From a virus, in the IMG/VR virus record IMGVR_UViG_3300050119_000104, positions 32,001 to 96,000 of that record: a stretch of 64,000 nt of DNA. One strand, given 5' to 3'. Position numbers and translations under genes: made by a program. The first letter of the stretch is position 1, and each line of letters begins with the position of its first letter. The notes below the pieces were generated by a model. That model ran no database searches. It worked only from the letters and a program-made list of their open reading frames with translations, and was not told where the DNA came from. This document shows positions 340-3,944 of the stretch, piece after piece.

Positions 340-576
340 TTGAAGGACGCAGGCGGTCACGGTAGCGAAGCACACGCGGCGCATCAGGCGGGCACGCTCG
401 ACGCGCTTCCTCGGATAATTCGGAATGCCGACGACGATACCTTGCTTGACATATCCCGCTGGGAGCGGCAAACATTGCAGGGTGCTATGTTAGCGCATGG
501 TAAAACTCAGTGGGACGAGAACCAGGACAGTGGGAGCCTGGACCCGAACCGCCCAGCAAAGGCAGCGAGCAAATGA
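340..576 (+). CDS. small protein with KDAxGHGS N-terminal motif (TTG start inferred)
   Basis: In-frame TTG after GGGGG gives MKDAGGHGSEAHAAHQAG. Confidence 0.55.
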   Translation: MKDAGGHGSEAHAAHQAGTLDALPRIIRNADDDTLLDISRWERQTLQGAMLAHGKTQWDENQDSGSLDPNRPAKAASK

Positions 577-1046
577 GCAAAGATGCAAAAGGTCACGGCA
601 GCAACGCACGCGGCGCACATTCTAGTGGAGTCGATCAGGTCGGCAAGCCTGCGCCCCAGGTCAACGACGCGGCGATGAAAGTCATCAGTAGCACGAAGCC
701 CGGCGAAGGCTTCTCTATCACACCGGGCGGCAGTCAACCGACAGACGGTCACATGGTTGCCCTGCCAAGCCGTACACAGGATGTCGATCCCGCTGCGTTA
801 TCCGGGCCCGGCGGTCGTGCCATCATTGACGCGTTCACCGCGAAGAACGCGGACGTTTTCAGTGGCAACCCGAATATGCATGTCGGTGGCTGGCTCGATC
901 CCGACACGCACAAGCTTTCACTCGATCCGTCCGAGAATATCAAGGATCGCAAGACAGCGATTGCCTCTGGCATAGCGCGCAATCAAAAAGAGATTTGGGA
1001 TGTGAAGAATAAGACCGGGATAAAGACAGGTGGCAGTGGTACATGA
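573..1046 (+). CDS. hypothetical protein, KDAxGHGS motif plus a globular domain
   Basis: MSKDAKGHGS start overlaps the upstream stop. C-terminal GFS..PTDGHMVAL..HVGGWLD..LSLD..NQKEIWD domain. Confidence 0.7.
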   Translation: MSKDAKGHGSNARGAHSSGVDQVGKPAPQVNDAAMKVISSTKPGEGFSITPGGSQPTDGHMVALPSRTQDVDPAALSGPGGRAIIDAFTAKNADVFSGNPNMHVGGWLDPDTHKLSLDPSENIKDRKTAIASGIARNQKEIWDVKNKTGIKTGGSGT

Positions 1047-1236
1047 CGCGGACTGCCGGCTGCATTTCACGGACGCGCCCCAACGGTTAAACATGAAGCG
1101 GCGCATCACGACGGAAAGAAACTAAAACAACTCAGCGCGTAACCTGTCTTGGAAAACGCCGGTTGAAAATGAACAAGATAAGGCGCAGCATGGTACATAC
1201 CGACGCGGAATACGAAAAGCAGGAGCGGATCATCCG

Positions 1237-1704
1237 TTGTCAAAATTGACCGAAGTCCAGCGACGGCAGATTAGAACGGCTACCGGGATTACAGCGCGAG
1301 ATAGCAGCGGAATTCGGGATCACTCAGCCACTTGTTTCGATGATAAAGGCAGGGCTATACACATGAAGAAAGAATTGAAGCCGGGCGAAGTCGGCGAACA
1401 CCATATCCCGATCTACGACCACAAAGGCCACATGCGGGGCAGAGTCGGGCCGCGCGCTTCAAGCGTGACGGTCGCTCGCTTCATTGGCCTGCACGGCGCG
1501 AAGCTCGGGACCAAAGACGGCCGCACCGCATGGATCGGTCCGAAGCCGCCACCGCCGAAATTGCCGACTGCCGTCGCCGTCGCCGAGCAACAGGCTAAGG
1601 CGAAACCGCAGAATAACACGCTCGAAATCTCGCTCAAGGCCGATAAGGGCAGCGTGACAAAGACGCCGAGTGCGCCAAAGACGAGCGCCCGGCCGAAGAG
1701 GTAG
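1237..1704 (+). CDS. hypothetical basic protein (start uncertain)
   Basis: ORF track; fits the operon packing. Confidence 0.5.
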   Translation: MSKLTEVQRRQIRTATGITARDSSGIRDHSATCFDDKGRAIHMKKELKPGEVGEHHIPIYDHKGHMRGRVGPRASSVTVARFIGLHGAKLGTKDGRTAWIGPKPPPPKLPTAVAVAEQQAKAKPQNNTLEISLKADKGSVTKTPSAPKTSARPKR

Positions 1705-1710
1705 AGGCTA

Positions 1711-1956
1711 ATGAAGGATGGCTACGGACTGACTACGGCCAGCATTCTCTATCGTCGGCCTGACCATCTTTGGTTGCTTCAAAGCTATATCTGGCAAGAG
1801 TATGATTTCTGTCCAGTGTTTCCTCAGTTACACAAGTTCCTGGATTTTTGGTTGGCCAAGCTCGACGGTCCATTACACTCGGTCACGGTCGCGCATGAGC
1901 GCTTGATAAAACCTACCGAAATCCGCGCCATAAGTAGCGAGTTTCGGCTTCACTAA
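1711..1956 (+). CDS. usg: Usg family protein
   Basis: GYGLTTASILYRRPDH..LLQSYIWQEYD..P.FP.L.KFLDFW..KLDGPLHSVTVAH..LIKP.E....EFRLH matches the alphaproteobacterial Usg pattern over its full length. Confidence 0.9.
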   Translation: MKDGYGLTTASILYRRPDHLWLLQSYIWQEYDFCPVFPQLHKFLDFWLAKLDGPLHSVTVAHERLIKPTEIRAISSEFRLH

Positions 1957-2015
1957 CACCGGGTTGCTTTCATAATGCAATCGATGTTATCATGTAAAAA
2001 TCCTGGGAGAGTGCT

Positions 2016-2204
2016 ATGATCAAAGACAAATTCGATTGCGATTGCTCGGGCGGCCAGCCGGTCGAGAACGATCAGCATGCGGCGACCGTGCTCGCGCAGG
2101 GCGGCCCGAAATCAAAGCGCGTCCCGGTCAAGTGGGGCATGAAGGATCAAGATAGCGGGGCCGAAGGGCTCGCGCGCAAAGGCGGTTCCGACCCCTACGC
2201 GTAA
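2016..2204 (+). CDS. small hypothetical protein (LAQGG / WGMKD motifs)
   Basis: RBS GGGAGAG; follows promoter at 1964. Confidence 0.65.
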   Translation: MIKDKFDCDCSGGQPVENDQHAATVLAQGGPKSKRVPVKWGMKDQDSGAEGLARKGGSDPYA

Positions 2205-2285
2205 GCTCGAAATTTACCGGGTTGCTTTGGTTAACGGACGCGGCTAAGGTGCCTCCGAAGAATTTCATTCTCGGAGGATATTCCC

Positions 2286-2720
2286 ATGGCAGTCAAGGGC
2301 AGTGGATTAGGCGCGGGTCCTGATGGATCGCGGGTTGATCAAACGAAGTTCGACGCCCGGAGCGGCGCTGCCAAGCGCACGCAAACCAAATTTCCGATCA
2401 AGGATACCATGAAGGATCAGACCAGCCTTTCGTATGCTGGTCCAGCCAATCCTGGTACGGGTCCCGATGCCGATCCGGCCGACGTTATGTCGCCGGAGCC
2501 GAAGGGTAAGACTTTGCATCGTCAGTCGCAAATTCTCTTCAATCGTTGGGGTATGAAGGGTGCTGCGCCCGACATGACCGACTCAGCCAAGACAGGCAAG
2601 ACGCTCGACGCCAATATCGGTGGCAAGGTCCTGGGCGAAGCGATCCTTTCAGGTTCGAGCAATCTCCCCGCGAAGGGAACTGCACTTACCGATAGCGGCA
2701 AAGCGCCGTCCCGGAGCTAA
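2286..2720 (+). CDS. low-complexity hypothetical protein
   Basis: RBS GGAGG; follows promoter at 2222. Confidence 0.7.
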   Translation: MAVKGSGLGAGPDGSRVDQTKFDARSGAAKRTQTKFPIKDTMKDQTSLSYAGPANPGTGPDADPADVMSPEPKGKTLHRQSQILFNRWGMKGAAPDMTDSAKTGKTLDANIGGKVLGEAILSGSSNLPAKGTALTDSGKAPSRS

Positions 2721-2726
2721 CGTGCT

Positions 2727-2984
2727 ATGCGCGCCTTCCATGGTGCGCGTGAAAATACGCTCGGTGCGGAGACTAATCTCGCGCCGGGCTTCAATCTTGT
2801 CTCACCGAAAGTCGCTGCGGCTACAATGCACAACGATCTTGCGGATGACGTGAAACAAATTGCCGACGGAACGAAGAACGTTCCTATTCATCCGGCGCAA
2901 GTCGCTACCGAAGGATCAGATAAACAGGGATACGGCGGCGACGCTGCGCAACACGATCCGACGGGGATTGGACGAGGCATGTGA
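2727..2984 (+). CDS. small hypothetical protein
   Basis: ORF, coupled to the next gene. Confidence 0.6.
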   Translation: MRAFHGARENTLGAETNLAPGFNLVSPKVAAATMHNDLADDVKQIADGTKNVPIHPAQVATEGSDKQGYGGDAAQHDPTGIGRGM

Positions 2985-3169
2985 TGAAAGACGCAAGAGG
3001 GCACGGCAGCAACGGCAACGGTGGTGGAATTGCGCATCAAACCGGCGTCTACCAAATTGATTCGATGCTGACGCCGCTCGGTAATCGCACGCTGCAACAT
3101 CCACGCGACAATGTTCAAAAAGGTGGGAACGCAGCCGGGCAATACTTGGCGCAAGGCGGAGATGATTGA
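2981..3169 (+). CDS. small protein, KDAxGHGS motif
   Basis: MMKDARGHGS...IAHQTG...LAQGG. Confidence 0.65.
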   Translation: MMKDARGHGSNGNGGGIAHQTGVYQIDSMLTPLGNRTLQHPRDNVQKGGNAAGQYLAQGGDD

Positions 3170-3348
3170 TGGCCAACGTGGCAAGTGGCTCGACGACGGT
3201 CGCGGACGTGATCGTTCCGAAGGGAAATTTCGGACCATACCCCTCCAAGCGCCGAAAGCGGCGCGGGGGCTATGGCCAACAGATCACTGATGAAAGTGCT
3301 GCACTTACATTGGGGCAGGGGCATCCGAAAAGTAGGGCATCAAAATGA
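3166..3348 (+). CDS. small basic hypothetical protein
   Basis: ATGA overlaps with neighbours. Confidence 0.55.
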   Translation: MMANVASGSTTVADVIVPKGNFGPYPSKRRKRRGGYGQQITDESAALTLGQGHPKSRASK

Positions 3349-3464
3349 CAGCGCGCGCACCCCGTAAAAAAGTGATTAAAGTGAAACCGACGAAACCGAC
3401 GAAGCCGGTGACGAAGCCGACGAAGTTGGCGAAGTTTATGAAGTGGTGGCTGACATGGGCTTGA
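3345..3464 (+). CDS. 39-aa Lys/Pro/Thr-repeat peptide
   Basis: Read by hand: MTARAPRKKVIKVKPTKPTKPVTKPTKLAKFMKWWLTWA. Confidence 0.4.
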   Translation: MTARAPRKKVIKVKPTKPTKPVTKPTKLAKFMKWWLTWA

Positions 3465-3598
3465 TCCTTTTGATTATCGTACTTGTTCTGTTGTTCGGCG
3501 GCGGTGGATTTTACGCTGGCGGCGGTCGCGGTCTTGGTGGGGGTCTCGGTCTTATTCTGATCATCCTCTTGATCGTGTTTGTGCTCGGCGGGATTTGA
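3455..3598 (+). CDS. 47-aa two-TM Gly-rich membrane peptide (DUF3309-like)
   Basis: MGLILLIIVLVLLFGGGGFYAGGGRGLGGGLGLILIILLIVFVLGGI. Confidence 0.65.
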   Translation: MGLILLIIVLVLLFGGGGFYAGGGRGLGGGLGLILIILLIVFVLGGI

Positions 3599-3599
3599 A

Positions 3600-3944
3600 A
3601 TGAAAGACGCGCAAGGTCACGGTAGCAATTCTAAAGGCGGCCAAGCGGCTGTCACATCGTGGCGGGCGGCACATCAAGAAGGAATTCGGCAATCGGTCCC
3701 CAGCTTGATTAAAGCGTTCGTGAAGAACGAAAGCGGCGAAGGCCGCTCTCTCGGGGAGCTTAAGAGCTACGATCCGGAGCCCACATCACGGCTTATCGGT
3801 GAAGGCATCGGCGCGGCGGCTTCGGGCGAACACGCAGGATTAGCAGAAGTCGGAAAAACGCTTATTCATCTGGCGCATTTCCTCGGGGTCTTGGGTGCGC
3901 TCGCATTAGTCGATCTGATGGCTCATTTGGTGGGGATAGCATGA
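3600..3944 (+). CDS. small protein, KDAxGHGS motif, hydrophobic C-terminus
   Basis: MKDAQGHGS...AAHQEG. Confidence 0.65.
   Translation: MKDAQGHGSNSKGGQAAVTSWRAAHQEGIRQSVPSLIKAFVKNESGEGRSLGELKSYDPEPTSRLIGEGIGAAASGEHAGLAEVGKTLIHLAHFLGVLGALALVDLMAHLVGIA

Follow-up and report, generated by a model that had tools for sequence, protein, structure and literature searches.

A putative virion-loading tag at the N-terminus of ten small, unrelated proteins from an uncultured peat-soil phage

Proteins that a phage injects together with its DNA are its first weapons against the defences of the host. Outside T4, P1, P22/T7 and the giant phages, injected proteins have, to our knowledge, been found only through virion proteomics of cultured phages. 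Short, disordered peptides that dock varied cargo inside a shell of HK97 fold are familiar from the encapsulins, where the cargo-loading peptides are mostly C-terminal. In phage T4, IPI, IPII and IPIII, which are internal proteins, as well as Alt have a common short N-terminal leader, the capsid-targeting sequence (CTS), which is sufficient for encapsidation (PMC9026906), and in P1 the N-terminal 10–30 residues of DarB suffice to load this anti-restriction effector into the capsid (PMC9024508). The polyvalent proteins of Iyer et al. (2017) are predicted to be packaged, T4 Alt being both packaged and injected, and solo versions of their domains were noted beside structural genes (PMC5512222); the main text of that article contains neither the string 'GHG' nor the string 'HPR'.

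The DNA considered here, a window of 64,000 nt, is part of a 117-kb genome of an uncultured peat-soil phage which carries ten small, unrelated genes with a common N-terminal tag. These genes are classed as late by their position, in the sense of sharing the orientation of late genes and no more. The relevant features of the window are the following:

340..576, + strand: tagged gene A, 78 aa, TTG start, begins LKDAGGHGSEAHAAHQAG
573..1046, + strand: tagged gene B, 157 aa, MSKDAKGHGSNARGAHSSGVDQVG followed by a folded alpha/beta cargo domain (predicted)
2286..2720, + strand: conserved, untagged low-complexity gene of the array, whose homologues, known from 46 related loci, never carry the tag
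2981..3169, + strand: tagged gene C, 61-62 aa, MKDARGHGS...IAHQTGVYQI
3600..3944, + strand: tagged gene D, 114 aa, MKDAQGHGS...AAHQEGIRQ, with a hydrophobic C-terminal helix
5556..8734, + strand: small and large terminase genes (5556-6320 and 6317-8734; phrog_1482; phrog_979, phrog_2), which anchor the first array slot
10930..13695, + strand: 921-aa portal-adjacent protein with the second leader type MPFDESQHPRGEHGRW; homologues begin MTFDPNEERDPHGRW
15746..17338, + strand: 530-aa DUF7178 protein with the second leader type MTEFDEGAHPRGKGGKF
36480..36695, + strand: tagged gene E, 71 aa, occupying the slot of the tail module
36692..37000, + strand: tagged gene F, 102 aa, N-terminal half of a tagged HExxH zincin-like gene that is split
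37074..37355, + strand: tagged gene G, 93 aa, MGKDALGHGS...AAHQEGVTAL
37352..37543, + strand: untagged, 63 aa, C-terminal half of the zincin-like gene that is split

A common N-terminal KDAxGHGS on seven small ORFs had been claimed in the original prediction, and this was confirmed: seven copies are present in the window, against 0.00 expected for the back-translated pattern in 100 dinucleotide shuffles. The coding positions of the motif, all on the + strand, are 343, 579, 2987, 3603, 36483, 36695 and 37080, in ORFs that start at 340 (TTG), 573, 2981/2984, 3600, 36480, 36692 and 37074, such that the start codon precedes KDAxGHGS by one or two codons in all seven. A Shine-Dalgarno-like purine run lies before each tagged start, and several of these starts overlap the preceding stop (ATGA, GTGA). 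The second element, AH[QS]xG[VI], which had been said usually to follow the tag, is found in five of the seven genes, with a degenerate version in the remaining two, and does not recur outside the tagged genes in any of the window's six translated frames. The downstream sequences, likewise described as unrelated, displayed no significant mutual similarity beyond the tag. The count of seven holds for the window but not for the phage, whose total is ten, with three further tagged genes just upstream in the same genome (G000:C1:30907-31167, 31164-31538 and 31627-31908); of the seven small proteins all carry the motif, but ORF 36692-37000 is half of a split gene. The consensus reads M(A/S)-K-D-A-x-G-H-G-S-[NDE], and in most cases A-H-x-x-G-[VI]-x-x-[VI]-G comes 0-20 residues later; the logo of the tag is K-D-A-[KL]-G-H-G-S-[NDE]. 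The codons of the tag vary synonymously among the copies, serine being encoded by AGC, AGT or TCC; these differences show that it is the peptide, as opposed to a repeat in the DNA, that is under selection.

Across 79 related viral loci, 329 tagged ORFs of 24-205 aa (median 124 aa) were found, up to 12 per genome and with the motif one or two residues after the start codon in all; they fall into at least 56 unrelated cargo clusters (42 singletons). A tag profile without Met matched 344 protein clusters among 1.84 billion, the motif beginning at residue 2-4 in 147 of the best 150 matches and the length being 29-256 aa for all but two of these. No match was obtained in the INPHARED phages either by blastn (window 1-8000) or by tblastn (canonical 33-aa tag). 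KDxxGHGS is absent from the five closest cultured phages (by portal), and no cultured carrier was found in these two sets. Word-based searches for longer fused forms returned one 184-aa match and then none, which is weak evidence, and no paper describing the tag was found in the literature. The idea of a portable label on variable cargo is well supported, the tag being always N-terminal, more conserved than its cargo, predicted to be disordered and joined to this wide range of cargo groups. Since the studied loci all come from a single phage lineage, there is no negative set for co-occurrence tests. Within a genome, positions 4 and 9 of the tag are more uniform than expected (0.56 vs 0.32 and 0.50 vs 0.33, values never reached in 1000 permutations), and the tag variant, of L/N or K/D type at these positions, switches between sister phages, a pattern that a shared partner would be expected to produce; the uniformity could also stem from the exchange of entire arrays as blocks or from host-specific factors.

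Where recognised, the cargo is of effector type. Matches in tagged proteins include ART-PolyVal, GNAT, Arr-like, ParB_N, HTH, an M57-like zincin and an endonuclease, and the composition differs from that of the large proteins of the same loci: cysteine accounts for 0.01% of residues (1% of the proteins contain any) against 0.85% (78%), the median pI is 9.9 against 5.7, and histidine reaches 4.4% against 1.9%. AF2 predicts a disordered tag ahead of a confident fold; in gene B, pLDDT is <50 for residues 1-23 and >90 for residues 30-157. Gene B has 28 orthologues in which the tag is invariant and the cargo 40-75% identical, and its cargo domain also occurs within a 1807-aa internal virion protein of cyanophage SS120-1. 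A Foldseek comparison of the gene B model with the PDB gave no match at E <= 0.001, and a protein atlas search returned only viral 'hypothetical' clusters. Gene D resembles protein P0142. The split of gene F was seen by alignment to the full-length homologues L023:5545-6033:- and L046:4638-5138:-, with the product of 37352..37543 showing 70% identity to the former's C-terminus, and gene G lies inside a segment of ~350 nt that stands in for the HHEIGH region of the split gene. Pfam and PHROGs searches gave nothing significant for the seven tagged proteins of the window, Rfam gave no match in window 1-6400, and a promoter/terminator scan did not exceed the shuffled background. Among the neighbours in the array, family matches were obtained for a Usg-like protein and for the terminase, and for nothing else. 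That its untagged genes might be tagged elsewhere was rejected, as homologues of p2286, p2727, p3941, p4424 and p1237 never carry the tag.

Tagged genes occupy two fixed slots, one upstream of the terminase and one between the tape-measure and tail-tip genes. In related loci 192 of 192 are co-oriented with TerL and 191 of 192 lie upstream of it, and all 11 tail-slot tags are located between the tape-measure gene and the gene of the 896-aa tail protein; the slot of gene E, upstream of the homologue of the latter, is kept in related phages. In the window the portal lies at 9253-10872, the scaffold at 18324-19220 and the coat protein at 26442-27590. The phage is present in 18 DNA runs of peat samples. 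The array is covered by RNA-library contigs from two peat studies and is therefore probably expressed in situ. In the two RNA libraries the array is covered and no contig spans most of TerL, although these are contigs only, in which gaps prove nothing and depths cannot rank genes.

It is suggested, with moderate confidence, that the tag is a loading leader of the capsid-targeting type in protease-less, SPP1-like siphoviruses of Alphaproteobacteria. Its putative role as a packaging and ejection address is indicated circumstantially by the effector-type cargo, the domain in common with a cyanophage internal virion protein, the fixed late positions in the packaging and tail regions, the avoidance of cysteine and the presence of the tag where modules of head-protease polyproteins begin. 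The disordered N-terminal leader would single out late proteins that are small, basic and free of cysteine, in a set that can change, to be taken into the virion, with the head interior and possibly also the tail lumen as destination. During assembly this linear motif may dock onto a structural partner that the phage encodes and that all tagged proteins share; candidates are the scaffold, the coat protein at its inner face, the portal complex and the tape-measure complex. The loaded proteins would then enter the next host along with the DNA, where the ADP-ribosyltransferase, acetyltransferase, ParB-like nuclease, zincin, membrane-anchored and other domains may act early in infection.

Each module of P0002, P0152 and P0153, which are XkdF head-protease polyproteins, begins with the tag, and at every joint the tag follows (V)MF(D/N)D(L/I/V)(I/V)K, a conserved segment with which P0153 terminates exactly; other XkdF polyproteins have HPRGxxGRF or NPYHDxxGRF at the equivalent position. 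The XkdF protease family is located between the portal/MuF and the scaffold/coat genes. No relative of P0002 was present in the viral contig collection, and a metagenome scan with P0153 retrieved only its untagged relative P0154. Taken with the HExxH zincin that is tagged in related phages, these joints could mean that the tag signals module boundaries or processing, as the prime side of a site where head-maturation or polyvalent-protein peptidases cleave or dock, and that the stand-alone genes are former polyprotein modules which retain the boundary peptide without any address role. This is considered unlikely: the tag is N-terminal in small proteins for 147 of the best 150 profile matches, with nothing left to cleave; the 117-kb genome has no match to PF03420, PF04586, PF14550, PF00574 or PF01343 (no S78, XkdF, ClpP, S49 or S77) and its tagged zincin is broken, yet ten of ten tags are intact; and a relic is not expected to remain invariant as the cargos diverge. 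A similarly small probability is given to a role played in the cell, producing or infected, rather than in the particle; the tag might be a common degron, a stability signal or a handle by which different enzymes reach a single machine of host or phage (protease adaptor, replisome, membrane). Short disordered motifs at the N-terminus would typically serve as recognition signals, the tag variants differ by phage lineage and could track host factors, and the probable expression in peat is compatible with such a role. It would, however, leave the avoidance of cysteine, the two fixed packaging and tail-module slots and the use of the tag in head-protease and scaffold-like polyproteins unexplained, and effectors such as ART-PolyVal have been tied to virion delivery (PMC5512222).

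The two or three histidines in the first ~20 residues, the His-rich and basic nature of the proteins and the likewise His-rich modules behind the tags of P0002 would also suit a His/Gly-rich functional arm that binds metal or DNA, for instance condensing with the packaged DNA, and confers the same property on each protein. This appears quite improbable in view of the invariant K-D-x-x-G-H-G-S spacing, which points to a specific pocket and not to general charge or metal affinity, and no known metal-site pattern was recognised in the tag. Such an arm would overlap with virion loading if the bound partner were packaged DNA. Conservation at the level of the nucleic acid, as a translation-initiation or regulatory element common to the tagged genes, is hardly credible; the motif always stands at the ORF start and the second codon is mostly AAA or AAG, but third positions vary freely, serine swaps between the AGY and TCN families, the peptide also occurs internally in polyproteins and the distance to the second element is variable. 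A DNA repeat or translation signal was accordingly rejected on the codon evidence. RiPP precursors with a shared leader were discarded too, the cargos including enzymes and domains predicted to fold with confidence, and no RiPP-type modification enzyme was found among the array neighbours. Nor is the tag a Sec or Tat signal peptide, since it is polar and rich in Gly, His and Ser and has no hydrophobic stretch, whereas such peptides have a hydrophobic core that follows a charged N-region (with twin-Arg in Tat).

Should the tag indeed load proteins into virions, the injected effector repertoire of uncultured phages would become readable directly from the genome, here up to a dozen genes per genome in phages of soil and peat Alphaproteobacteria, and the many tagged cargos that lack a known family would be candidate anti-defence or host-takeover proteins. 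The motif class of the second leader, seen in the 921-aa and DUF7178 proteins, also occurs at XkdF polyprotein joints, and a broader proposal, tentative and open to considerable doubt, is that two interchangeable leader/joint peptides form a small sequence-defined loading code of tailed phages that marks particle-carried proteins: small proteins would bear KDAxGHGS(+AHxxGVxxVG), large portal-adjacent ones (F/Y)(D/N)Px(E/H)xRDxxG(R/K)(W/F). The tag might then also serve to bring proteins of choice into siphovirus particles, with no protease step involved.

Among the described systems, the cargo-loading peptides of encapsulins resemble the tag in being short, disordered (in the tag by prediction) and joined to varied cargo, but the tag is N-terminal and different in sequence. 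With the polyvalent proteins the tagged genes share the repertoire of ART-PolyVal, GNAT, ParB-like and zincin peptidase domains and the late, virion-related gene context; these proteins, however, carry two to fifteen effector domains per polypeptide, in contrast to the single cargo module with its own leader in tagged proteins of 24-205 aa. P1 DarB offers an N-terminal packaging signal, within the first 30 residues, to set beside the putative loading by the N-terminal tag; the Dar proteins have no common consensus and the P1 cargo is very large, whereas the tag is common to up to 12 genes per genome and its cargo does not exceed 205 aa in the studied loci. The T4 CTS is likewise a short N-terminal peptide common to otherwise unrelated proteins, with mostly small, basic cargo including an ADP-ribosyltransferase (here a median of 124 aa, a pI of 9.9, and ART-PolyVal, GNAT and ParB_N), a cargo set that varies between related phages, and the loading of proteins injected with the DNA as its role, which for the tag is proposed from the genes. 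On the other hand, the tag has no sequence likeness to the IPIII/IPII/IPI leader, is bipartite (KDAxGHGS + AHxxGVxxVG), and belongs in part to genes of the tail module. Its carriers are SPP1-like siphoviruses in which no prohead protease is detectable, with no gp21-type (S77) removal at L/I-x-E, and since the genome has no known prohead protease family, leader removal of the T4 type cannot apply. The tag would, if the proposal is true, provide a second, protease-independent model of cargo loading beside the T4 CTS.

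A six-frame search of the window recovered the seven tag sites of the original prediction, with KDAxGHGS beginning at 343, 579, 2987, 3603, 36483, 36695 and 37080, all on the + strand and each preceded by a start codon one or two codons upstream.

Starts of the tagged genes in the window
340, +, TTG (gene A)
573, +, ATG (gene B)
2981 (GTG) or 2984 (ATG), +
3600, +
36480, +
36692, +
37074, + (gene G)

The back-translated tag pattern matched seven times, against 0.00 expected from 100 shuffles. Its codons vary synonymously (AAA or AAG for Lys, GAT or GAC for Asp, AGC, AGT or TCC for Ser, and all four for Ala and Gly), which argues for selection on the peptide; a DNA repeat as the origin of the tag is ruled out by the same differences. 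Five of the seven proteins contain the second element, AH[QS]xG[VI], described as the usual sequel of the tag, and two have degenerate forms of it; no further reading frame of the window encodes it. Beyond the tag and the second element, none of the seven is related to any other, as had been claimed. The genome holds ten tagged genes, the remaining three lying just upstream of the window.

Tagged genes upstream of the window
C1:30907-31167
C1:31164-31538
C1:31627-31908

The window (C1:32001-96000 of the genome G000, an IMG/VR virus record of 117,459 bp) contains a structural region of siphovirus type, entirely on the + strand.

Structural genes
5556-6320, +, small terminase
6317-8734, +, large terminase (TerL)
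9253-10872, +, portal
18324-19220, +, head scaffolding protein
26352-27590, +, major head protein
33239-35770, +, tape measure protein
37540-40230, +, large tail protein

Translation of the major head protein probably begins at an ATG 30 codons inside its ORF. The first tag cluster lies directly 5' of the terminase genes, and the second is flanked by a 160-aa gene past the tape measure and by the 896-aa tail protein. Prohead proteases of the S78, XkdF, ClpP, S49 and S77 types were not detectable in the whole genome. Among the nearest cultured phages by portal (~44% identity) is PhiJL001, which has a coat protein with an SPP1-like annotation.

The head module carries an IS200/IS605-type insertion at 14199-15715, recognised by eye from translations; a 478-aa ORF antisense to it (14313-15749) is probably spurious.

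ORFs of the insertion, both assigned by eye
14199-15302, -, TnpB-like, 367 aa
15305-15715, +, IS200-like TnpA, 136 aa

At least ten copies of an element of ~245 bp, ending in inverted repeats of ~27 bp, lie in the 117-kb genome (93-100% identity, both strands), including window 1-257 and 63814-64000 and G000:C1:13769, 14635, 15472, 18464, 18974, 26073, 29656 and 102013. It looks like a MITE, matches no Rfam family, and has one copy directly 5' of tagged gene A. Amid the head genes (20114-25960) are a TIG-domain protein, a glycosyltransferase and a collagen-like protein of 1152 aa, which has a large internal duplication and matches 'tail fiber' PHROGs; together with two nucleotide-sugar epimerase-like genes at 47020-50789, they suggest a glycosylated fibre or decoration.

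The motif search proposed with the original prediction, run on IMG/VR with the pattern ATG-KDAxGHGS, recovered 79 loci, which with the window give 329 tagged ORFs (250 distinct) of 24-205 aa (median 124). The nearest start codon lies one codon upstream of the tag in 262 and two in 67. The tag logo reads K100 D100 A86 [K38 L38] G100 H100 G100 S99 [N48 D28 E17] x [R54 H20] G71; the second element, AHxxG[VI]xx[VI]G[KRQ]P, lies anywhere from directly fused to the tag (GHGSNAHNSGV) to more than 20 residues behind it. The tagged loci belong to a single phage lineage, with identities of ~70% for the portal (32 loci), ~50% for TerL (38) and ~80% for the coat, the loci having been chosen by presence of the tag. 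Among 185,579 species genomes, only eight tag loci were found, all in MAGs, and seven of these come from peat or palsa members of the Alphaproteobacteria or Hyphomicrobiales; a TerL homologue adjoins some of the eight. The window phage itself is present in 18 DNA runs from peat, permafrost or soil. Text searches of one literature collection found no description of a KDAxGHGS peptide, and the strings 'GHG' and 'HPR' are absent from the main text of the polyvalent-protein paper (PMC5512222).

A tag profile without the Met, beginning at Lys, gave 344 matches among 1.84 billion representative proteins (E <= 0.001). In 147 of the best 150 the tag sits at residues 2-4, in proteins of 29-256 aa. The exceptions are three protein clusters: P0104, whose tag follows an internal Met, so that its start was probably mis-called; P0127 (392 aa), with two internal copies; and P0002 (664 aa), with three.

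A TerL homologue is found in the same locus for 192 of the tagged genes; every one of these is co-oriented with it, and 191 lie upstream of it (median distance 4 kb). All 11 tags of the tail slot lie downstream of the tape measure and directly 5' of a homologue of the 896-aa tail protein. Cargo families switch slots: the tagged zincin lies near the terminase in the related loci L023 and L046, whereas in the window it occupies the tail slot. The untagged array genes p2286, p2727, p3941, p4424 and p1237 are untagged in every homologue, so tag status is a stable property of the gene family. Metatranscriptome contigs from two libraries of two studies span 596-3110 and 3963-5352; the array is thus probably transcribed in peat, although assembled contigs give neither gene ranking nor timing. 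Homologues of an untagged low-complexity 144-aa protein at 2286-2720 (conserved motifs GMKDQ, WGMKG and GKVLGEAILSGS) occur in 46 related loci, nearly always just 3' of tagged genes; the protein matches no known family and is a candidate partner or adaptor. The array also includes an 81-aa Usg-like protein (1711-1956; PF06233, E 4.6e-37), of a family unusual in phage.

In the family of protein B (157 aa), the tag columns are invariant against a cargo identity of 38-74%, and the two elements stand 0 to 20 residues apart. AlphaFold2 on the family alignment returned pLDDT <50 for residues 1-23 and >90 for 30-157, and the tag is accordingly predicted to be a disordered leader ahead of a folded domain; Foldseek matched the predicted fold to nothing in the PDB.

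Composition of tagged proteins and of large proteins from the same strand and loci
Cys content: tagged 0.01%, large 0.85%
Proteins with any Cys: tagged 1%, large 78%
Median pI: tagged 9.9, large 5.7

BLAST groups the 247 cargos, stripped of the tag, into at least 56 clusters, including 42 singletons; only short shared motifs join the members of the largest cluster. Pfam matches among 131 representatives include ART-PolyVal (three members, best 8.7e-14), GNAT acetyltransferases, an Arr-type ADP-ribosyltransferase, ParB_N, several HTH domains and an M57-like HExxH peptidase, to which PHROGs add ParB-like, acetyltransferase, HNH/endonuclease, peptidase and many families of unknown function. These predicted domains are the repertoire of polyvalent proteins, which in the view of Iyer et al. 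are packaged in the capsid and then injected, T4 Alt being the prototype packaged ADP-ribosyltransferase (PMC5512222). The commonest cargo family is that of protein B (29 cluster members, of which 28 are full-length orthologues with 130 aa or more). The 1807-aa 'internal virion protein' of the cyanopodovirus SS120-1 contains the same domain at residues ~780-900, and Gordonia phage Fryberger encodes it untagged in a gene of its own; thus this cargo occurs tagged, untagged and fused into a virion-internal protein.

The tagged HExxH zincin-like gene at 36692-37543 is split in two: the HHEIGH-bearing segment of its homologues is replaced by ~350 nt carrying the tagged gene 37074-37355, so that insertion of one tagged cassette has interrupted another tagged gene. 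A motif AAxxLAxG(G/P)KSxPVPVH recurs in small array proteins, tagged and untagged, at 2070-2120 (p2016) and 4480-4540 (p4378), and in 45-50 tagged proteins of related loci.

In P0002, three His-rich helical modules, each opened by a tag, come after a serine protease domain of XkdF type (PF14550, 2.2e-15), and its relatives P0152 and P0153 share this arrangement. The segment (V)MF(D/N)D(L/I/V)(I/V)K precedes each internal tag in all three, and P0153 ends exactly with it, so a joint reads as a module end with the next module's leader. In an untagged relative, P0154, the protease polyprotein lies between TerL-portal-MuF and scaffold-coat, the place of a head maturation protease. The equivalent joint carries another peptide in P0155 (SESDHPRGKGGRF) and three copies of KFNPYHDxxGRF in P0165, which also has an ART-PolyVal domain; in P0153 both kinds are adjacent. 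This second class, F(D/N)(P/E)xxx(H/R)(P/D)(R/x)xxG(R/K)(W/F), forms joints in the XkdF and polyvalent polyproteins P0155, P0157, P0161 and P0165, and opens both large portal-adjacent proteins of the window, whose homologues in related phages begin MTFDPNEERDPHGRW.

Second-class leaders in the window
10930-10995, leader MPFDESQHPRGEHGRW of the 921-aa portal-adjacent protein
15746-15810, leader MTEFDEGAHPRGKGGKF of the 530-aa DUF7178 protein

The phage thus appears to use two leader types, one for small and the other for large head-module proteins.

Some phages carry exclusively KDALGHGSN and others exclusively KDAKGHGSD across unrelated cargos. Within-genome identity reaches 0.56 at tag position 4 (0.32 expected) and 0.50 at position 9 (0.33 expected), values not attained in 1000 permutations over 45 contigs, with near-identical contigs counted more than once. 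On the TerL tree the L type is clustered, yet at least four or five switches are needed, as between the sister phages L031 (6/6 L) and L027 (6/7 K). Co-evolution of the tag with one lineage-specific partner would fit this uniformity; the pattern would look no different if phages swapped entire arrays or if factors specific to the host were at work.

The main rival readings would make the tag a motif for processing or module boundaries, a signal for targeting or stability inside the cell, or a His-rich arm with a function of its own. The best-supported reading is that of a candidate loading leader of the capsid-targeting type. The tag sequence is unrelated to the T4 one and the genome has no detectable prohead protease, so the tag system does not belong to the T4 system; in anatomy and cargo it is like the leaders of T4 IPIII, whose first ten residues are enough to encapsidate foreign proteins and are then cleaved off by gp21 (PMC9026906), and of P1 DarB, whose first 30 residues suffice for encapsidation (PMC9024508).
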